Source: an uncultured Methanosarcinaceae archaeon
Lineage (GTDB): Archaea > Halobacteriota > Methanosarcinia > Methanosarcinales > Methanosarcinaceae
Length of the DNA: 11,100 nt
NCBI GenBank assembly: GCA_963721455.1
Contig: CAVRJG010000001.1
Location: 1 to 11,100, forward strand
Direction: 5' to 3'
How positions within the stretch are numbered: the stretch's first letter is position 1; each line of letters starts with the position of its first letter. The position numbers and the translations under genes were made by a program. Positions 1 to 11,100 of this stretch are shown here, in pieces. Below the pieces are notes generated by a model that searched no databases, was not told the DNA's origin, and saw only the letters and a program-made list of their open reading frames with translations.

Positions 1-94
1 GTTTAGGAATAACAAATATATAATTTAAAGTATTTTTATTGTCATATAATATTGTTGATTAAAATCTGTTAGAAATGACAAGGAATTTACTTTA

Positions 95-1308
95 ATGCTG
101 CGCACAAAATATTCTGAGGAAATTGAAAAACAAATGAAAGTGTTTTATAACACTTTAAATGAGAAAGATCGAAGAAGATATGCAGCCATAGAAGCAATGA
201 AATTAGGTCATGGGGGACAAAACTACATAAGTAGTGTTCTAGGCTGTCATTTTCAAACTGTTATGGCTGGAATTAGTGAAATCACTAATGGTATAGAAAA
301 ACCAGATAACAGGATTCGAAAGCCTGGTGGAGGTAAAAAGAAAATCATCGATACAGTCGAGAATATTGATGAAGTTTTCTTTGAGATTTTAAAAGATCAT
401 ACGGCTGGAAGCCCTATGGATAACGAAATAAAATGGACAAATCTGAGTCTTAAGGAGATTTCAAAGGCTTTTGAAGCAAAAGGCATGAACATAAGTCCCC
501 ATGTAGTAAAGCAGCTCTTAAAGAAACATGGTTTTGCAAAGAGAAAGATGCAAAAAACCGTCACAATGAAAGATTGTAAAGATAGGAATGAGCAATTTGA
601 GAGGATTCGTGAGTTAAAAGAAGAGTACTCAAAAAGCAAGAATCCGATTATCAGTATAGATGTCAAAAAAAAGAATTCATAGGCAACTTCTACCGTGACG
701 GAAAAGTTTATTGTACTCAGCCAGTTAAGGTTTATGACCACGATTTCAATACATTTTCAGATGGCATTGTAATTCCACATGGCATTTACGACTTAAAACG
801 TAACGAAGGATACATCACTTTAGGAACCAGTAAGGATACAAGCGAGTTTTGTTGTGATGGCATTAAAGACTGGTGGAAAAACTACGGTAAGCAAAATTAT
901 CCAGAAGCAAATAGCGTTTTAACCTTAGCCGATAGCGGTGGAAGCAACTCAAGTAGACATTTTATATTTAAAGAAGACTTACAAAAACTAGTAGACGAAA
1001 TTGGGATTGAAATCAGAATGGCTCATTATCCATCATATACTTCGAAATACAATCCAATAGAACACAGGTTATTCTGTCATGTTACAAGTGCCTGCAAAGG
1101 TGTTGTCTTTAGCAGTATTGATGTGGTCAAAAGCCTTATTGATAAGACTTCTACATCAACAGGATTAAAAGTGTTTTCGACTATCAAAAATAAAGTTTAT
1201 GCAAAGGCAAGAAAAGTAAGTGAAAACTTCAAGGAAAACATGAAAATTGTATTTGACGATTATTTGGGGAAATGGAATTATAAAGTAATTCCCGAAGTAG
1301 AAATGTGA
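95..1308 (+). CDS. ISAzo13-family DDE transposase (~404 aa), requires -1 frameshift at 665-673
   Basis: ORF 95-682 ends ...SIDVKKK. The -1 frame continues EFIGNFYRDG...YDHDF...PHGIYD...LADSGGSNSSR...HYPSYTSKYNPIEHRLF...GKWNY to TGA 1306-1308 with no stops; these are ISAzo13 (DDE_Tnp_ISAZ013) motifs. The called ORF 1018-1308 is only the tail of this frame. Confidence 0.9.
665..673 (+). other. Candidate programmed -1 frameshift / slippage site A_AAA_AAG (A8G)
   Basis: GTC AAA AAA AAG: heptamer at 667-673 in phase with the upstream ORF, 6 nt before the stop TAG at 680-682. Weak downstream hairpin AACTT..CCG-TGA-CGG..AAGTT (685-708). Confidence 0.75.
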
Positions 1309-1867
1309 AGTTATTTTTTAGCTATTCCTTAATCAATATTTTACCTGATTAATTTTCGTAGGGGCCACTTTTCTTGCAGGCATCAGCCCATCAAAAAACA
1401 GCCGCAGGCATGTGCTGCCTGTCCCAGCGGTTCAAAGAATAATGACTCCAGATGTATACTGTTAATTTAGCTAAGTTATTCTTAATTTGATAAAAAATCA
1501 TAATAACTCATACTATTTCCAGAAAACTATTGAGATTCGAATAATAAATAGGAAATTTAGTTAAGTTTATGTAATACTTTTGCTCTATCAAATCAGAAGA
1601 AAGTAACATGAAAATATATAATAGTAATAAATTAAAATTCCCTAATAATTATCTTATAAGTTTTTACCCAGAGCCTTCTTTAGTGATTCAAGGTTAAATT
1701 GTAAGCGTCGCACAATGGGGACGGTGCTAAGCGCTGATACAGTAACCAGTTTATTGATTGCGGGAGCATTGAAGAGATCAATGGCATTCTAAGAATTCAA
1801 CTAAAAAGTTAGCTGATTTTGCAGGCTTAGCAGATGGCAAAGATAATTCTTAGGATAGTGGGACTAT

Positions 1868-2984: not shown

Positions 2985-3037
2985 GTGCATCGATTCCATA
3001 CTTCTTGAATAAAAATTAATATAATACTTTAATTATA

Positions 3038-3233
3038 GTAACTATTCAGCCTACAAAAATCAGTTGGTTGATATCGATTTTGACGTAATAGCTACGTCTG
3101 ATTACTAACTGATGAAAAATGGAAAAACACGATTAATAGCCAACAATTAAATAAAATCAGTTCCCTGAAATTTGCCCATTGAATCTTAATAATGAAGGCT
3201 ATTGATGTTGTTTTGCCCAGACTGAGTAGTTAC
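3038..3233. mobile_element. 196-bp non-autonomous MITE with IS66-family (ISBst12-like) ends
   Basis: IRs GTAACTATTCAGCCT (3038-3052) and revcomp of 3219-3233 GTAACTACTCAGTCT (13/15). Perfect 8-bp duplication TAATTATA at 3030-3037 and 3234-3241. Removal shrinks the leader of A from 266 to 62 bp, matching the 61-bp leader of B. Confidence 0.88.
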
Positions 3234-3317
3234 TAATTATAATAATATTTATGGGTCGTATAAGCCGCCGTTCCAAGTTATCACTTACTAGTGCATCGAT
3301 TCCTAATTAACTCCATT

Positions 3318-4597
3318 TTAGATTGTGATTCCACCAGGCATTTCATCCCTTTCTTCCATTTTATATCTCCACGTAAATAGAACTGCTTTTTCGTTAACCT
3401 GGTTTATATATTGACTAATTCTTTCTTTTAATTCATTTATTGAGTCCACTCTTATTCCTCTCAACACGCTCCTCCCCATTTTACTGAAAAAACTTTCGAT
3501 GATATTCAGCCACGAAGCATGTTTGGGTGTGAAAACAAATTCAAATTTATCAGGAATTGTCGCCAAGTATTTCCGAGTTTCTTCTGATGTATGCATTTTA
3601 AGATTATCCAGTATAATTATGATTTTTTCTTCTGGATATATTGACTCAAGTCCTTTGAGATATTCAATGAATTCGCAGCTTCTATGCTGCTCAAATATTT
3701 TATAATAAATTCTCCCAAATATCAAGTCAATTCCAGCTAATAGTGAAAGAGTCCCATGTCTTTTATACTCATAATCTCTTGCTATTGTAGAATAATACCC
3801 TTCTACTGGCATAAGATCTGGATAAACATTTCCAATTACCTGAATACCTGGTTTTTCATCGTAGGAAATAATCACTGTCTTAATTTGTTCATTTTTCCTT
3901 TTTTTTCATTTAGTCTTTTAGGAATGGTTGAAGTATAACTTCAAGTTTTCACTTTGGTAATGGCTCTATAATTGCACTTCCCAAATATCATTAATGATAA
4001 TATGGGGCATAAATACTTGAAATTAAATTTCCATCATTCCTTAGCTTCTCTATATGTCTCCAGAACATTGGCTGCTTTTTGATCAAAATCGGGATCAACT
4101 TTAGCAATGTAACAGCTAATTTTATGTGGTTTTATCTTGCTTGCATTAAGAATCTTTGAAATTGTCCCCTGATTTATCTTCGATAAATCAGGATGTTCCT
4201 CTTTGATACAATTCTCCCTGATATGTTCAGCAAGGAGTCTCTGAGTCCATATTTCATGAGGATAACCAAGATCTTTTGGTTTCATACATGCAAGTGAGAC
4301 TACGCGAGCTCGTGATTCAGCACTAATATCTCGAGGTTTCCCACTTCTTGATTTATCTACCAAGCCTTCTTTGACCCCAAAATCTAAAACTCTTTGTATC
4401 CAGAGTCTTACAGTTTTGTAATCCACTTTTAACTCTCTGGAGATCTCGGTATCGTTTTTTCCCTGATAGCTCAAAAGAACTATCGTGGATCTTTTAACAA
4501 TGCTTGCAGCTTGATTTCTAGAGCGACTTAACTTGGTCAAATAATCTAACTCTTTTTGAGTAAATGATAATTTAGGGCGACGGCTTATACGAGGCAT
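3318..4597 (-). pseudogene. IS630 transposase of element B (orfA 4597-4041, orfB to 3318), interrupted by a MITE and needing a -1 shift
   Basis: The N-terminal HTH part MPRISRRPKL...YREAK stops inside the MITE. The DDE part reads SYDEKPG...ILDNL...HASWLNIIESFF...PGGITI. With the MITE removed, the halves join by a -1 shift at an A8 run (T8 at 3899-3906 on +) to give 385 aa. Confidence 0.9.
3921..4040 (-). mobile_element. 120-bp ISAzo13-derived MITE
   Basis: 26-bp IRs GGAATGGTTGAAGTATAACTTCAAGT vs GGAATGATGGAAATTTAATTTCAAGT (21/26). TTA duplication at 3918-3920 and 4041-4043. Both ends align with the ends of the ISAzo13 element at 6-1328. Confidence 0.9.
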
Positions 4598-5644
4598 AAG
4601 TACATTTATAGAACAATTAATATAATTATTTTATGGATTTATATCAGAATCGATGCACTAGAGAAGAAGAAGATTACTTGATTAAGTTAAGTAATTCCAG
4701 AAGTCAATCAGCAAGCCTTGTTGAACGAGCTAAAATTGTGCTTTTAAGTGTTCAGGGAATAAACGATACTGAAATCTCTCTGGAATTAAACGTTGCTTAC
4801 AATACCGTAAGAACTCGAATACAAAGAGTTTTGGATTTTGGAGTTAGAGAAAGCCTGAAGGACAAAAAAGGAGGTGGAAGACCAAGAACTATTACAGACG
4901 AATCTCGTGCATGGATGATCAAGATTGCATGTATGAAACCAAAAGATTTTGGGTATCCACATGAAATATGGACACAGAGACTCTTAACTAAATATGTGCA
5001 GAAAAACTGTGTCAAGGAAGGACATCCTGAATTATCAAAGATAAGTCAGGGAACGATTTCAAAAATCTTGAATGCAAGTAGCATAAAACCACATAAAATC
5101 AAGTATTACACCGCCAAAGTGGACCCAGATTTTGATGAAAAGGCAACGAAAGTTTTGGGCACATATAAAGAAGTTAAAAAACTAAAAAAAATTAAAAAAA
5201 AGAAAACGTTAGATAGAGCAATATTTTCGTGTGATGAAAAAACAGGTATTCAAGCTATTGGAAATAAGTATCCAGATCTGATGCCAGTAGAAGGAAAATA
5301 TCCTAAGATGGCAAGGGATCATGAGTATATTAGACATGGTACTCTTTCATTATTTGCTTGTACTGATCTGATTACTGGGAAAGTTCATCACAAAGTTTTT
5401 GAAAAAAATAGAAGTCGTGAGTTTATTGAGATTTTGAAAGAAATAATTTCAGATTACCAGGATACAAAAATAGTCGTGATTCTTGATAACTACATAATAC
5501 ACATATCAGAAGAAACTAAAAAATATCTAAGTACCTTGAAAAAGGGAAAGTTAAAGTTCGTATTCACACCAATACATGGAAGCTGGTTGAATATTATTGA
5601 AAGTTTCTTCAGCAAAATGATTAGAAGCTTTTTAAGGGCAATAA

Positions 5645-6516
5645 GAGTCTATCCGAAAAGTATTTGTCTTCCGATGAATGGTAATTTGTGGTAGTGACAA
5701 AACGAAAAACGGTACAGGACTACAAGATACCTTTTGAACTCTGGAATAAAATAAAACCATTATTACCACTGCCCAAATCTAAAAAGAAGCCTGGAAGACC
5801 TCGCGAAGATGATTGGAAAATCTTTAGCGGTATTTTTTATGTCCTTCGTACTGGCTGCCAATGGAAAGCACTGCCAAGAAGTTATGGAGCACCAAGTACC
5901 GTCCATGATCGATTCCAAGAGTGGCAGAAAGATGGATTATTTGAAAGAATGTGGCAAGCTGGTCTGCTGGACTATGATAATGAAAAAGGGATAGATTGGG
6001 AGTGGCAAGCAATTGATGGAGCTATGACAAAAGCACCATTAGGTGGGGCTGGAACAGGGGCTAATCCTACTGATCGAGGCAAAAAAGGCACAAAAAGAAG
6101 TTTATTAACTGATGCAAAAGGCATACCTCTTTCTATTGTAGCGGATGGAGCTAATCGTCACGATAAAATGCTCGTAAAAAAGACATTAGATGCCATAATT
6201 TTAGAAAGACCTTTTCTAGACGAGGGAATTCAAAATATATGTATGGATAAGGGATATGATTATCCTGATATCAGAGAGTTGGTTAAAGATTATGGTTATA
6301 CTGCCCATATAAAGAGCCGGGGAGAAGAAAACATAAGAATAGAGATTCCGGGGTTTAGAGCAAGAAGATGGGTTGTAGAAAGGACACATTCTTGGATAAA
6401 CAGATTCAGAAGACTCCTTATCAGATGGGAAAAGAAAATTGAGAATTACCTTGCTATGCTACATTTAGCATGCACATGGATAACTTTCAGAGCAGCAGGA
6501 CTTTTCGGATAGGCTC
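5645..6516 (+). mobile_element. Complete IS5-family (IS1031-type) insertion sequence, 872 bp
   Basis: IRs GAGTCTATCCGAAAAGT (5645-5661) vs revcomp of 6500-6516 GAGCCTATCCGAAAAGT (16/17). TAA duplication at 5642-5644 and 6517-6519. A TWA target, GAG ends and a single ORF fit the IS1031 subgroup. Confidence 0.93.
5688..6512 (+). CDS. IS5-family transposase (274 aa, intact; GTG start at 5688 or 5694)
   Basis: GRPR..D, IFYVLRTGCQW.ALP, STVHDRFQEW; catalytic motifs AIDG, MDKGYD, RWVVERTHSW..RFRRL; stop lies inside the right IR. Confidence 0.95.
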   Translation: MVVTKRKTVQDYKIPFELWNKIKPLLPLPKSKKKPGRPREDDWKIFSGIFYVLRTGCQWKALPRSYGAPSTVHDRFQEWQKDGLFERMWQAGLLDYDNEKGIDWEWQAIDGAMTKAPLGGAGTGANPTDRGKKGTKRSLLTDAKGIPLSIVADGANRHDKMLVKKTLDAIILERPFLDEGIQNICMDKGYDYPDIRELVKDYGYTAHIKSRGEENIRIEIPGFRARRWVVERTHSWINRFRRLLIRWEKKIENYLAMLHLACTWITFRAAGLFG

Positions 6517-6898
6517 TAAGAGTAGAATCTGCAGAGGAATTGAAGGATAGGATTGCTCAATACATAAATTTACTCAATGAGGAACCTGTGATATTTATGT
6601 GGAAATATAAAGTTGAAGAAAAAGATAAGATTCCCGGTGGAATTACGATATGAAAAAAATATGCAATTAATTTGGAATCGATGCACTAGTACCACAATCA
6701 AGAAAAAGACTTAAATACGGGAAAAGCAGCACCCGAGTTTCCTTTGTACCATTACTTATGAAAAGCGCCGGCTCTGGTTTTAGCCCACCGCAACTTCTGT
6801 AGTGACGAGAAACACCGAAGACAAGGAAAGATTTAACCCTGTAAATCAATCCGCTTTGCCGGGTGAAAAGCAGTTTCACTTACCTATAAATTACCCCT

Positions 6899-7040
6899 CT
6901 TGAGCGAATAAAAAAGATATCTTGCCCGTAAATTCAGCCCTTTTGAGCTCAAGTGGCGCAACGCTTGACCAAAACCATTGCGCCGTTTTATCACGCCATA
7001 ATACATCGTTTTCGCTCAAGCCTTTTTTGAAAAGGCTTGC
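6899..7040 (-). repeat. Palindrome-rich intergenic element / possible terminator immediately 3' of ala
   Basis: 10-bp stem CAAGCCTTTT-ttg-AAAAGGCTTG (7017-7039); 7-bp stem GGCGCAA/TTGCGCC (6955-6984); palindrome TTGAGCTCAA (6943-6952); 10-bp IR CTTGAGCGAA/TTCGCTCAAG (6899-6908 / 7011-7020). Resembles, from recall only, a dispersed Methanosarcina intergenic repeat. Confidence 0.6.
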
Positions 7041-7043
7041 GTT

Positions 7044-8024
7044 TCAGAACATACGGACTTGCCTGCCAAGCTTCTTGCTGACAGCCCTCTCATAAACCAG
7101 ATGCGCGCTTGCAACGTCCTGAATGGCAAGGCCTGTTGAGTCGAAGATCGTAATTTCCTCCTCACTTGTCCTGCCTGGTTTCAGGCCGGTGATCACTTCG
7201 CCGAGCTGGGCATGAATATCATTCTCCGAAATGTAGTGCTTGGAGAGAGGAACGTTTACTTCTCCTGAATGGAGTGCCTGGACAATATCGTCCACAACGA
7301 TCTTTGAGCGGATTAAAAGTTCGGGGTCAAGTTCTTCTTTTCCCACAGCATCGGCCCCTATTGCGTTTATGTGAGTGCCTTCTTTGATCCACTGGGCCTT
7401 TACGATCGGTTTTCTGGTCGGAGTGGTCGTGACAAGGATATCGCAGTTGCAGACCTTCTCAATGCTTTCTTCGTAACGTATTTCGCAGGGGGTAACGCCT
7501 GCCATTTCCCGGATAAACCGTTCACAGCTCTCTTTTGTCCTTGAAGTGATTCTTACCAGTTCAGGCTCAAAAACCTCGACGAGAGCTTCGAGCTGGGTCT
7601 TTGCCTGGTTTCCGACCCCGATAATACCGATAACCTTTGAGTCCTTTCTTGCCAGGTATTTTGCGGCAATCCCTCCTGCGGCCCCGGTCCGGATATCGGT
7701 CAGGTAGGTTCCGTCCATAATTGCTACAGGAGCGCCTGTTTCCGGGGAAATGAGGACGATCAGCGCCATTACAGTGGGAAGCCCGCGGTCCGGGTTCCCG
7801 GGGTGGACGTTTACGATCTTCACGCCAGTGATATTCTCTTCTTCAAGATATGCAGGCATTGTCCGCAGGTCTCCGTTGTAAGCCGTATAGTAAAGATAGG
7901 ATTTGGGAGGCATCTGCACCCTTCCAAGCCCGTGCTGCCTGAAAGCTCTTTCCACTACCTGCATATCAGAATGCATATCCATAACACTTTTTACTTCGTC
8001 CTGAGCCAGCCACAATAATTCCAT
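7044..8024 (-). CDS. ala: Archaeal alanine dehydrogenase (ornithine cyclodeaminase / mu-crystallin family), 326 aa
   Basis: QMPPKSYL, GDLRTMPAY, GVKIVNVHPGN..GLPTVMA, MDGTYLTDIRTGAAG, Rossmann IIGVGNQA, HINAIGAD..GKEELD, IFDSTGLAIQD. GGAGGT RBS at 8032-8037. Confidence 0.9.
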   Translation of the reverse strand: MELLWLAQDEVKSVMDMHSDMQVVERAFRQHGLGRVQMPPKSYLYYTAYNGDLRTMPAYLEEENITGVKIVNVHPGNPDRGLPTVMALIVLISPETGAPVAIMDGTYLTDIRTGAAGGIAAKYLARKDSKVIGIIGVGNQAKTQLEALVEVFEPELVRITSRTKESCERFIREMAGVTPCEIRYEESIEKVCNCDILVTTTPTRKPIVKAQWIKEGTHINAIGADAVGKEELDPELLIRSKIVVDDIVQALHSGEVNVPLSKHYISENDIHAQLGEVITGLKPGRTSEEEITIFDSTGLAIQDVASAHLVYERAVSKKLGRQVRMF

Positions 8025-8147
8025 AATATAAACCTCCAGCCGGAGCCATAAGCTAGCCCACGGCTGAAAACAACCTTATATTGAACAGAACCGGAACAAA
8101 AATCGCCAGAGGCAAATAGACTGCCGGATATCACGCATTGTTATTTT

Positions 8148-8177
8148 TATTTGCGCAAATATGTATATATAACATAT
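8148..8177. promoter_or_regulatory. Candidate TATA box with adjacent 14-bp palindrome in the divergent ala / DUF434 spacer
   Basis: Perfect palindrome TATTTGCGCAAATA (8148-8161) next to TATATAA (8166-8172; TTATATA on the - strand), itself flanked by the inverted pair ATATGT/ACATAT. Confidence 0.4.
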
Positions 8178-8225
8178 ATCTCCACTCATTTAAAGAACTT
8201 CCTTCCTAAAAGGAGACAACTATGC

Positions 8226-8936
8226 ATGAGAAGTATGCATGATAATTCGGTTGATTTTTCCGGCCTTTATCTAAAAGAAAAATTGCTCAAGCCTGCCCGG
8301 GATATCCGGAGCATACTCCGATGGGGCTACCCTAAATTTGCAACTATCCGTTTCGTCGCTGACCATTTCCAGCTCAGGGTAGAAGAGCGGCATATCCTCA
8401 CAAGGGTAATTATGCCCCCGGACAGAGTAGTTTCCAGGATTAATAAAAAAGTGGCCTGTACAGGCATAAAGGATAGGAACCTTCTCCTTGATGGATATAA
8501 TGTCCTCCTGAGTGTGGATAGCCTGCTAAAAAAGGAACCCATGTGGTCCTGTGATGACGGGTACATAAGAGATACCCGCTACTATTTCAGCAAAGCAAAA
8601 CAGGCCGAAGACATCGAAGAAGCCCTTGATACTATACTTAAATTTCTTTCCGAAGCCGGCCCAAAATCAGCCGTTTTTCTCTTTGACGCCCAGATCAGCA
8701 AGAGTGGGGAGCTTGCAGGTTTCATCCGCCGCAAACTGAAAGAACACGGGATTTCAGGAGAGGCTAAAACTTCAAAAACCACTGATTTCGAACTGAAAAC
8801 AGGCGGCGGAAATCCGGAAAATAACATGATCGTAGCAACTTCCGATGGAATTGTTATAGATTCAGTCCTGCAGGTACTGGACATCCCTGCCTGCCTGATG
8901 GAAAAAATGGGAATTGAGCCGGTCAGGCTGTATTAA
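8226..8936 (+). CDS. DUF434 domain-containing protein (NYN/PIN-like fold likely), ~236 aa
   Basis: DIRSILRWGYPK..IRFVADHFQL..EER.IL.R, LLDGYNVL, CDDGYIRD, LFDAQISKSGELA, VATSDGIVID. AGGAG at 8211-8215 favours ATG 8226 (or 8235) over the called TTG 8151. Confidence 0.82.
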   Translation: MRSMHDNSVDFSGLYLKEKLLKPARDIRSILRWGYPKFATIRFVADHFQLRVEERHILTRVIMPPDRVVSRINKKVACTGIKDRNLLLDGYNVLLSVDSLLKKEPMWSCDDGYIRDTRYYFSKAKQAEDIEEALDTILKFLSEAGPKSAVFLFDAQISKSGELAGFIRRKLKEHGISGEAKTSKTTDFELKTGGGNPENNMIVATSDGIVIDSVLQVLDIPACLMEKMGIEPVRLY

Positions 8937-8940
8937 TTTG

Positions 8941-9993
8941 TTACCAGGCACTCCGCTTAAAGAATTCTGCCTGCCTGTAGATTTCTTCGGCTTCTGCATA
9001 CTGCCCTTTTTCTTTTAACAACTCCCCATATCCATGCAGGGTTCCGAAGTGCCCTGGGTCAAGCTCAAGAGCTTTTTTGTACTGGACTTCGGCTTCGTGC
9101 CTGTGCCCAAACCTGGCAAGCAGCCTGGCATACTCGCAATGGGCTTCAACGTCTTCAGGGTTCAGTTTAAGAGCATACCTGAAGTGCACTCTTGCTCCAT
9201 GGATGAAACCGTGGTCTGCAAGCAAACGGGCATAGAACAGATGAGGTTTTGGATTTTCAGGGTCTGCCTTGAGGGCTGTTATGTAATATCTTTCGGCTTC
9301 AAGAGGCTCTCCTTTTTCTTCAAGGAAACGGGCATAACGGAAATTGGATTCCACGTGGTCAGGGTCGAGTTCAAGAGCCCGAATGTAGTGATAATTTGCT
9401 TCGGTTTTTTGCTCGCGTTTGGAAAGCAGAATCCCATACCTGCAGTGGGTGCTCACATGCATGGGGTCAAGCATCAGGACTCTATGGTATGCTTCTTCGG
9501 CTTCATCCATTCTTTTGAGCCTGTAAAGCAGGCAGCCGTAATTGCAGAGCGTATCGACATGGAAAGGATGAAGTTCCAGGGCCTTCTCGTACTGAATCCG
9601 AGCAGCATCCAGTTTTCCTGTTCTGGCCAGAACAGTCCCATATCCACAGAGGGCTTCGATATTTACAGGGTTTTCTTCGAGCAACTCTTCGAATTCCCGC
9701 GCAGCAAGTTCCTCAAATCCAAGCAGAAAAGCTGTTTTTCCTGCCTCCATAAGGGCGTCTTCCCGCACCTTTCCTGAGAACAGTGAAGTGCAAGCCCTGG
9801 AAATTACATATTTCTCTCTGTACATCCGATCTTTATCAAAAATAATCGAGAGTTTCAGCAGGATATCCCGGGAAAGCAAATGCTCATTTGAGAAGGAAAC
9901 GACAAACTCTATGACCTTATCGAGATCACAGTTATCTGTTGCAACCTGTTCGATTACACGAAAAACCAGCTTGTCTACAGCATCAATCTCCAT
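8941..9993 (-). CDS. Tetratricopeptide repeat protein, ~350 aa
   Basis: About eight 34-aa repeats of the form YG.LL...G...EA...Y.KALELDP.H. AGGAGG RBS at 10003-10008 favours ATG 9993 (MEIDAVDK) over the called start at 10065. Confidence 0.9.
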   Translation of the reverse strand: MEIDAVDKLVFRVIEQVATDNCDLDKVIEFVVSFSNEHLLSRDILLKLSIIFDKDRMYREKYVISRACTSLFSGKVREDALMEAGKTAFLLGFEELAAREFEELLEENPVNIEALCGYGTVLARTGKLDAARIQYEKALELHPFHVDTLCNYGCLLYRLKRMDEAEEAYHRVLMLDPMHVSTHCRYGILLSKREQKTEANYHYIRALELDPDHVESNFRYARFLEEKGEPLEAERYYITALKADPENPKPHLFYARLLADHGFIHGARVHFRYALKLNPEDVEAHCEYARLLARFGHRHEAEVQYKKALELDPGHFGTLHGYGELLKEKGQYAEAEEIYRQAEFFKRSAW

Positions 9994-10258
9994 GCATAAA
10001 AACCTCCTGAAATTTGCCTCTAAAGTGAATCTATTCGACTGGATATAAATAATTAGCTGTATCAAATTGAATCAAAGAAATTCAAAAAGGTAAGACCTCG
10101 TACAGGGTGAAAAAACCGAAAAAAATTAAAAATTTGAGATAAAAAATCGAGAAAACCTGAAATAAGGATGAATTAAAAAATAAAACCCAAAAAAGATAAA
10201 GATGGAAAAAACAAACCCGAAAGACATTCTATAAAATTGTCTCCGGTTTCAAGGCTTC

Positions 10259-10299
10259 TTTCTACCGTCAACAGTTTTCATTTCTATCGTCAACAGTTT
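10259..10299. repeat. Two 19-bp direct repeats, 22-bp period
   Basis: TTTCTACCGTCAACAGTTT (10259-10277) and TTTCTATCGTCAACAGTTT (10281-10299), 18/19 identical. Confidence 0.8.
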
Positions 10300-10364
10300 A
10301 TTCCGGTGTCAGTTGTTACGGAATCTCTCTCCGTAATTACTCTTAAGCCCTGGTTTCCACTCTT

Positions 10365-10782
10365 TCAGACTCTACCCACATGTAAACTGTACCTTGTCTC
10401 CACATCATAGGTACCCTTAAGTTCCTCTTCGGTCAGGATTCCTTTTTCTATCAGTTTACTGAGAGTTCTCCTGTCAACTGATTCGACTATGTCCCAGAGT
10501 TCCCTTTTCATAAGATAGGATTTTAGCCTGTTAACCCGCCAGAGCTTCCATTCAACTTTCTGCCGCCTGAGCTCCACATTTCCTATTCTAAGCACATCGA
10601 TGTCTTTTTCTATCAAGGTATTGAGAATATGAGTTCTCAACTCCTCCCGCCGCTTTTCCAGAATGGATATCGCAGAAAACAAGCTCATCGTATTCAAGCA
10701 CAACATCGGTCAGGTCCATGTCTTCAGGGTCCTGCTCACTGATATCAAGTTCCACTATCCCACACTCCCATTGATACCCCAT
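10365..10782 (-). pseudogene. Small hypothetical protein (~130-138 aa) split by a 1-nt frameshift
   Basis: Called ORFs 10588-10782 and 10365-10706 join into ...ELDISEQDPEDMDLTDVVLEYDELV|SAISILEKRREELRTHIL...YSLHVGRV if one T is removed from GTTTTC (A4 at 10676-10679 on +). Possible GTG start at 10755 with GGGAG RBS. Confidence 0.6.
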
Positions 10783-10798
10783 TGATATCCCATTAATA
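10766..10798. repeat. Three tandem 11-bp repeats (T/C)CCCATT(G/A)ATA
   Basis: TCCCATTGATA, CCCCATTGATA, TCCCATTAATA back-to-back at the 5' end of the hypothetical gene. Confidence 0.7.
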
Positions 10799-11100
10799 TA
10801 TATGTTGTAAACAAAGGTTTTATAATTCCGCTTTTATTGCCTGGACTTTTAATTTTATCCTACATTCGGCAGCAAGCACATTCTAACATCTAAATATCCT
10901 TAATTGTTATTTTTTGTAGGTTCACTTAAAAACCAATATCATACGGACTATATATCCAACACGATTTGACATTTACCTCATTTATCACAAATATATATTA
11001 ATTATGTTATGGTTAACATTTAGTAATTTTTGATTCAAATTGAATTTCAAAAGTTCTGAAAAAAACGATATGAACAGAAAAATTGAATGGATTTTTATGT

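Follow-up and report, generated by a model that had tools for sequence, protein, structure and literature searches.

The stretch analyzed here (the window) is the whole of an 11,100-nucleotide contig (GenBank CAVRJG010000001.1, assembly GCA_963721455.1) from an uncultured Methanosarcinaceae archaeon, and between positions 2985 and 6686, as its sequence and the element borders read, it carries five mobile elements of four families, nested at three levels within 3.7 kb. The outermost one is element A (2985-6686, plus strand), an insertion sequence (IS) of the IS630 family, whose own DNA is dispersed over 2985-3037, 3242-3290, 4661-5644, and 6520-6686 and amounts to 1253 bp. It starts with GTGCATCGATTCC, finishes with GGAATCGATGCAC, and is bordered by a TA duplication at 2983-2984 and 6687-6688, both copies of which lie inside CTAG (the left CTAG being 2982-2985). 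Three guests reside in A. The first is MITE1 (3038-3233), a 196-bp miniature inverted-repeat transposable element (MITE) of the IS66 type, which has the ends GTAACTATTCAGCC and GACTGAGTAGTTAC, no open reading frame (ORF), and a perfect 8-bp duplication, TAATTATA, at 3030-3037 and 3234-3241. The second is element B (3291-4658, minus strand), another IS630-family member that lies inverted inside A, measures 1245 bp when its own guest is subtracted, and encodes its transposase in two frames; its TA duplication (3289-3290 and 4659-4660) sits in CTAG, the sole internal one of A. The third is an 872-bp IS5 element (5645-6516, plus strand) with one 274-amino-acid transposase ORF (5688-6512), inverted repeats matching at 17 of 18 positions, and a TAA duplication at 5642-5644 and 6517-6519. 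B in turn harbors MITE2 (3921-4040), a 120-bp ISAzo13-type MITE with the ends GGAATG...CATTCC, flanked by TTA at 3918-3920 and 4041-4043. TTAG stands on both sides of MITE2, which leaves a one-base ambiguity, so that TAG or TTAG could equally be read as its duplication.

All five target duplications, of 2, 8, 2, 3, and 3 bp, were perfect. A repeat search picked up the inverted terminal sequences of four elements (A, B, MITE1, and IS5), as well as 539 nt of inverted similarity between A and B. Thus, the map of a five-element nest that had been drawn in a first-pass annotation, made from the letters of this DNA alone, was exact to the base, with a perfect duplication around each guest.

The family memberships proposed in that annotation were likewise borne out by NCBIfam and Pfam scores, common ends, and duplications. 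The transposase of A scored 190 bits against the NCBIfam IS630 model NF033545 (cutoff, 100), matched DDE_3 and HTH_32 of Pfam, and had its nearest named relatives among Methanosarcina records (60-68% identity). The C-terminal piece of the B transposase reached 125 bits against the same model (cutoff, 100), and the N-terminal piece, a fragment, reached 77 bits; B, too, matched DDE_3 and HTH_32. Both ends of A, B, and nine other full copies showed the arrangement CTA-element-TAG. The IS5 ORF scored 263 bits against NF033580 (cutoff, 110) over profile positions 3-257 of 258 and matched DUF4096 and DDE_Tnp_1 of Pfam; the element has the ends GAGTCTATCC and GAGCCTATCC, and TAA adjoined all seven termini of this IS5 type found genome-wide. 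It probably belongs to the IS1031 group, whose members measure about 0.85-0.95 kb, duplicate 3 bp of the form TNA, have ends starting with GAG, and contain one ORF.

The two MITEs were assigned through autonomous relatives. Three autonomous elements of the IS66 family, each about 1.56 kb long (C54:125994-127567, C2:3-1560, and C3:101869-103423; PF03050 at 218-231 bits) share 14 of 14 and 12 of 14 bases with the terminal 14 nt of MITE1, and the IS66-family ends in this genome, GTAACTATTCAG(CC/GG), are those of MITE1; beyond these 14 nt the similarity ends. An 8-bp target duplication is a trait of the IS66 family. About 14 diverged copies of MITE1 (77-87%) occur in the genome, and perfect 8-bp duplications flanked 5 of the 10 copies that were read, with 7 of 8 bases matching in one more. 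MITE2 has the same end pentamer (GGAAT...ATTCC) and the same TTA duplication as an ISAzo13-family element at window 6-1328, with 29 of 40 and 24 of 40 terminal bases agreeing. The latter is a full element of 1323 bp with a TTA duplication at the contig start, and it has 100% identical copies on contigs C13 and C30. Its ORF matched PF07592 at 88 bits (cutoff, 26.9) and, as a 195-amino-acid fragment, NF033519 at 173 bits (cutoff, 200). The largest ORF (95-682) spans positions 2-179 of the 387-position family model, and this transposase likewise looks split.

We then unwound the nest with a script that deleted each guest together with one copy of its duplication by coordinates. Guest-free A measured 1253 bp and had a 62-bp leader and a single open frame of 385 amino acids from the first ATG; guest-free B measured 1245 bp and had a 61-bp leader. 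The element and leader lengths of the first-pass annotation were thereby reproduced. That annotation had also suggested comparing the rebuilt elements with the genome, and intact copies of both were found. Rebuilt A aligned without gaps to C53:142576-143828 at 1252 of 1253 bases (99.92%), the sole mismatch being at position 671, and three further full copies were 98.3-99.3% identical; CTA...TAG flanks stood at all four other full A copies. Rebuilt B was 98.96% identical to its nearest copy, C33:26470-27715, and four more full copies were found at 88-92%. A and B themselves are 72% related.

Joints that skip individual guests were also present in contigs of four public metagenome runs, which represent other populations. 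A 204-base skip (joint 3029>3234) lacking MITE1, a 1370-base skip (joint 3286>4657) lacking B, and an 875-base skip (joint 5641>6517) lacking the IS5 element each occurred in all four runs, and a 123-base skip (joint 3917>4041) lacking MITE2 occurred in three of them; a single contig carried both the 1370- and the 875-base skip in run X1, and likewise in run X3. Therefore, uninterrupted forms of A and B occur in other populations. Their existence is a matter of observation, as are the borders, the duplications, the families, and the exact restoration of A and B.

The first-pass annotation had further credited both elements with 385-amino-acid transposases free of premature stops. This applied to A, but not to B. 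On the sense strand of B, an A8 run (T8 on the plus strand, 3899-3906), and not an A9 run, breaks the gene into frames of 211 and 195 codons that stand in a -1 relation. The split recurred at the identical position in 15 of the 16 full-length B-type copies of the genus (window 3899-3906; loci L100-L109, L116-L118, L124, L125, and L129), 12 copies at 82-93% identity coming from 9 other genomes, and it falls between the helix-turn-helix (HTH) and DDE parts. The ratio of nonsynonymous to synonymous substitution rates (Ka/Ks) was 0.16-0.50 for both halves, and identical split copies stood at separate loci in genomes G038 and G061 and, on contigs C73 and C63, in the present genome. Split copies have evidently transposed, as judged from these duplicates. 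The frame relation varied among the B-type lineages, some having -1 and others +1; B requires -1, but the 92% subfamily requires +1. Therefore, a fixed ribosomal -1 site does not fit, and a conserved programmed -1 frameshift in B, although considered, was set aside in view of the +1 relation of the subfamily. Transcriptional slippage on the A run is possible, and so is repeated decay at a hot spot combined with movement in trans. Decoding in the IS630 family is described as involving frameshift events, with transcriptional realignment in a Roseiflexus IS630 (PMC5009743). In the account of that review, the Roseiflexus transposase resembles that of B in being split at a homopolymer run between the DNA-binding and catalytic parts, whereas the B-type frame relation varies and recoding of the B type is a candidate read from sequence. 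The recurrent split at the A run is thus a by-product of this work that may merit attention as a candidate for archaeal recoding.

With regard to timing, the insertion events look recent, because A differs from its C53 sister by one mismatch and all duplications are perfect; on the former point, the recency assumed earlier was upheld. Containment, as had been noted before, places A ahead of its three guests. MITE2 either entered B in place or was carried along when B moved in trans, and none of the other B copies in the genome contained MITE2.

Target choice was then considered genome-wide. CTAG is scarce in this genome, with 2234 sites compared with 14,702 expected from base composition (observed/expected ratio, 0.15), and 15% of these sites are in repeats. 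IS630 reportedly prefers the TA in CTAG, as the title of a 1991 article by Tenzen and Ohtsubo has it, and in the present genome all 63 IS630-type termini carrying a CTA flank fitted the CTAG rule. The strong CTAG depletion together with the strict CTAG use by this IS630 lineage is another by-product of the analysis. Rebuilt A contains exactly one CTAG, at position 100, and this is the site of B; the guests other than B occupy AT-rich targets. Four of the 63 termini adjoined another IS630 end, giving two head-to-tail junctions. IS630 insertions into an IS630-associated CTAG numbered 3 of about 32 when the nest was counted, compared with about 1.05 expected from the share of sites (P = 0.09). 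It is conceivable, though we consider it unlikely, that in this CTAG-starved genome IS630 elements are their own best targets. On this reading, an IS630 copy has one internal CTAG and creates another at each border, giving about four times the genome-average target density; the family would therefore tend to stack on and disrupt itself, which would put a built-in brake on its spread. If so, the nest and the two head-to-tail junctions would be its visible traces.

It had been proposed that AT-rich IS630 elements act as safe havens, and a genome-wide enrichment test had been suggested along with it; such elements would draw in other ISs and MITEs more often than motifs and selection can account for. 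Repeats are abundant here: 26.6% of genome positions occur at least twice and 10.9% at least four times. Of 77 element ends from the seven families modelled, 22 (28.6%) adjoined repeats of at least four copies, compared with the 10.9% background (P = 1.5e-5). When the background was matched for guanine-cytosine (GC) content (the flanks average 27-40% GC), however, it rose to 17.5%, leaving an approximately 1.6-fold excess with P values of 0.011 by junctions and 0.057 by elements. The excess came from B-type IS630 (9 of 18 ends) and ISAzo13 (5 of 12) and was not seen for A-type (1 of 12) or MITE1 ends (1 of 22). A/B-type DNA totals 17.5 kb (0.45% of the genome) and received 4 clean guests, compared with 0.17 expected for 38.5 modelled elements; all 4, however, belong to a single locus that was itself chosen for being striking, and no clean duplication-flanked guest of the seven modelled families was found in A/B-type DNA outside the nest. 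Among 11 breakpoints inside truncated A/B copies elsewhere, 7 adjoined repeats of at least four copies, but these are not clean insertions of modelled families. Furthermore, CTAG availability by itself predicts about one IS630-into-IS630 event for the three seen, and in Escherichia coli evolution lines, IS-within-IS insertion is given as matching random expectation (PMC12065110). A safe-haven effect is thus improbable and not needed, given that B sits at the only CTAG of A; target motifs, AT-rich composition, and the retention of harmless insertions, this last being presumed, are sufficient to explain the pile.

Two further observations concern IS630-related DNA elsewhere in this genome (G000). 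One B-type copy stops at its position 206 at C40:693-898 and resumes at 198 on another contig, at C63:418-636, and both breakpoints adjoin one repeat with 11 copies. The contig break has probably divided a further nest here, one whose duplication measures 9 bp. Elements of about 167 bp (C21:9646-9812 and C42:37321-37487) and about 103 bp (C44:48285-48387 and C53:7235-7337) have IS630-type ends and CTAG flanks and look like IS630-derived MITE families.

The lowest level of the nest was examined through the flanks of A. To the left of A lie the initial 523 bp of a glycogen-debranching-enzyme gene, a 5' stump at 2462-2984 on the plus strand that matches GDE_N_bis (PF14742, 117 bits, profile positions 1-136 of 194). 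The homologue in relatives extends over at least 669 amino acids; closing the site of A in the sequence leads to a stop nine codons on, and the rest of the gene was found nowhere in the 98.5%-complete assembly. The right flank (6686-11100, plus strand) does not continue this gene but is a 98.9% twin of C24:10117-14530 (4.4 kb; 44 mismatches and 5 gaps), where its CTAG is unoccupied (C24:10117-10120) and has a different left neighbor sequence. Of 18 relatives from the same genus, 9 retain the C24-type adjacency at a distance of up to about 2.2 kb, or 10 when one at 4 kb is included, and one relative aligned straight through the unoccupied right-flank site. The first 6.2 kb of C24 are in turn a 99.3% twin of C12, and these duplicated stretches would point to a segmental duplication or to a second strain in the assembly. 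On these alignments, A bridges two non-neighboring loci. The claim that the nest can be unwound to the base therefore fails at the lowest level, where A joins the debranching stump to a stretch from another locus. The bridging would reflect recombined A copies, a one-ended event that deleted DNA, or a contig that mixes copies or strains.

Taken together, we consider, at a probability of roughly 0.85, that the nest built up through ordinary transposition in a genome very rich in ISs, probably that of a Methanosarcina-like archaeon, and that no new mechanism is called for. In the proposed course of events, A would have inserted at the TA of a CTAG. An IS66-type MITE would then have entered an AT-rich octamer in the leader of A, B the TA of the sole internal CTAG, and the IS5-family element a TAA close to the end of the A transposase gene. 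B would carry the ISAzo13-type MITE at TTA, either acquired in place or present in B before B was moved in trans. All elements would have used their usual targets, and the insertions would have been kept as harmless in already dispensable DNA. In the course of these insertions or afterward, A or a sister copy would have taken part in a recombination or deletion that joined two loci. We infer that all events took place in this one copy and that neutral retention caused the pile.

Several findings weigh against this account. The junctions of the nest itself were seen in none of the four metagenome runs compared, and in one public-run search for the whole stretch the best run shared 0.42 of the sampled words; the linkage of the five elements on one molecule is given by the assembly alone. 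The flanks of A are not neighbors in relatives, so the history of this copy exceeds simple insertion. The window is an entire, repeat-bounded 11.1-kb contig, beginning within an ISAzo13 copy and running out in a repeat. Moreover, the closest sisters of MITE1, MITE2, and the IS5 element in the genome are 87%, 83%, and 86% identical, respectively, and all partial, the best full-length MITE1 being at 81%; relatives at 93% or above are present in other populations (metagenome contigs). The missing close sisters fit a recent arrival only with cut-and-paste movement or with donors that were lost or left unassembled. ISY100, an IS630-family element, is described as transposing by cut-and-paste (PMC2170065), and for the other families this mode is what we infer.

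Because the contig is bounded by repeats and its right 4.4 kb duplicate C24, a strain mixture or a path switch in the 984-bp segment of A is possible. The junctions would then be real, with the insertions coming from different A copies or strains and the switch lying in the 984-bp A segment or in the B segments of about 620 bp, all of which other copies share. Such a chimera would be in keeping with the flanks of A deriving from different loci, with the at least 98.3% identity of the four other A copies, and with the C24/C12 twins, which suggest redundant or strain-variant contigs. The missing unique 3' part of the debranching gene, however, argues for a real deletion to the right of A, a simpler assumption than a path switch. 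In addition, the assembly contains no X-A junction, C53-type variants are present in both the middle and right A segments, and mis-assembly is unable to make perfect duplications. We therefore regard an assembly or strain chimera as very unlikely. Somewhat less unlikely, yet still doubtful, is that the nest arose partly by recombination, two A copies with some guests each, one in the debranching gene and the other at the CTAG preceding the right flank, having been fused by homologous exchange or by a one-ended transposase event. The debranching gene cut short on the left, the empty CTAG of C24, and the other left neighbor kept in relatives would agree with this, as would the grouping of guests to the left (A positions 53 and 102) and right (1087) of 984 bp of clean homology. 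On the other hand, neither a reciprocal product nor a second guest-bearing A copy was found in the assembly, and the variants of the A segments revealed no mosaic of the known sister copies, the left 102 bp being uninformative between C53 and C45.

Nested ISs are a known phenomenon, and the nest observed here is accurate and well above chance. A and B share with IS630 of Shigella sonnei and ISY100 of Synechocystis a DDE transposase with an N-terminal HTH, short inverted repeats, TA duplication, and the preference for TA in CTAG that holds at all CTA-flanked termini here (PMC2170065); unlike those elements, they inhabit an archaeal host, and the gene of the B lineage is split at an A run. In Wolbachia, 18 nested IS cases are recorded in three genomes (PMC3205602). 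They have in common with the present case an IS copy split in two by another IS; the present nest differs in stacking five elements from four families at three levels within 3.7 kb, with intact duplications and hosts restorable to the base pair. In E. coli laboratory evolution, self-insertion and nested insertion likewise proceed without target immunity and at a chance rate, and nesting is stated to gather homologous sequences and promote recombination (PMC12065110). Those insertions were watched as they occurred, whereas the present nest is a natural end state in which selection is inseparable from targeting. The literature examined contained no description of this nest or of its elements by name; the elements may still lack names within their families, or may already carry them. 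The locus could serve as a teaching example, with all signature duplications present, of the way in which gene callers fragment nested elements into partial "transposase" genes, and it allows a few transposition events of one archaeal genome to be placed in relative order.

No Rfam family reached its gathering score anywhere in the window. A terminal repeat of about 245 bp (10856-11100) has copies at 86-96% on C61, C17, and C15. Upstream of the debranching stump, a luciferase-like gene (1744-2455) is truncated to 192 amino acids, compared with 338 in a relative, and about 830 bp of the relative's sequence is absent between 1875 and 1946; the neighborhood around this gene is decaying as a whole. 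Directly after the stop of an ornithine cyclodeaminase-like gene on the minus strand lies a hairpin with a 10-bp stem (about 7008-7045). Its 33- to 38-nt core recurs tens of times in related genomes, often at 97-100% identity (57 times in G012 and 48 in G004), and it may be a terminator-like structure or a repeat resembling repetitive extragenic palindromic (REP) sequences or MITEs.

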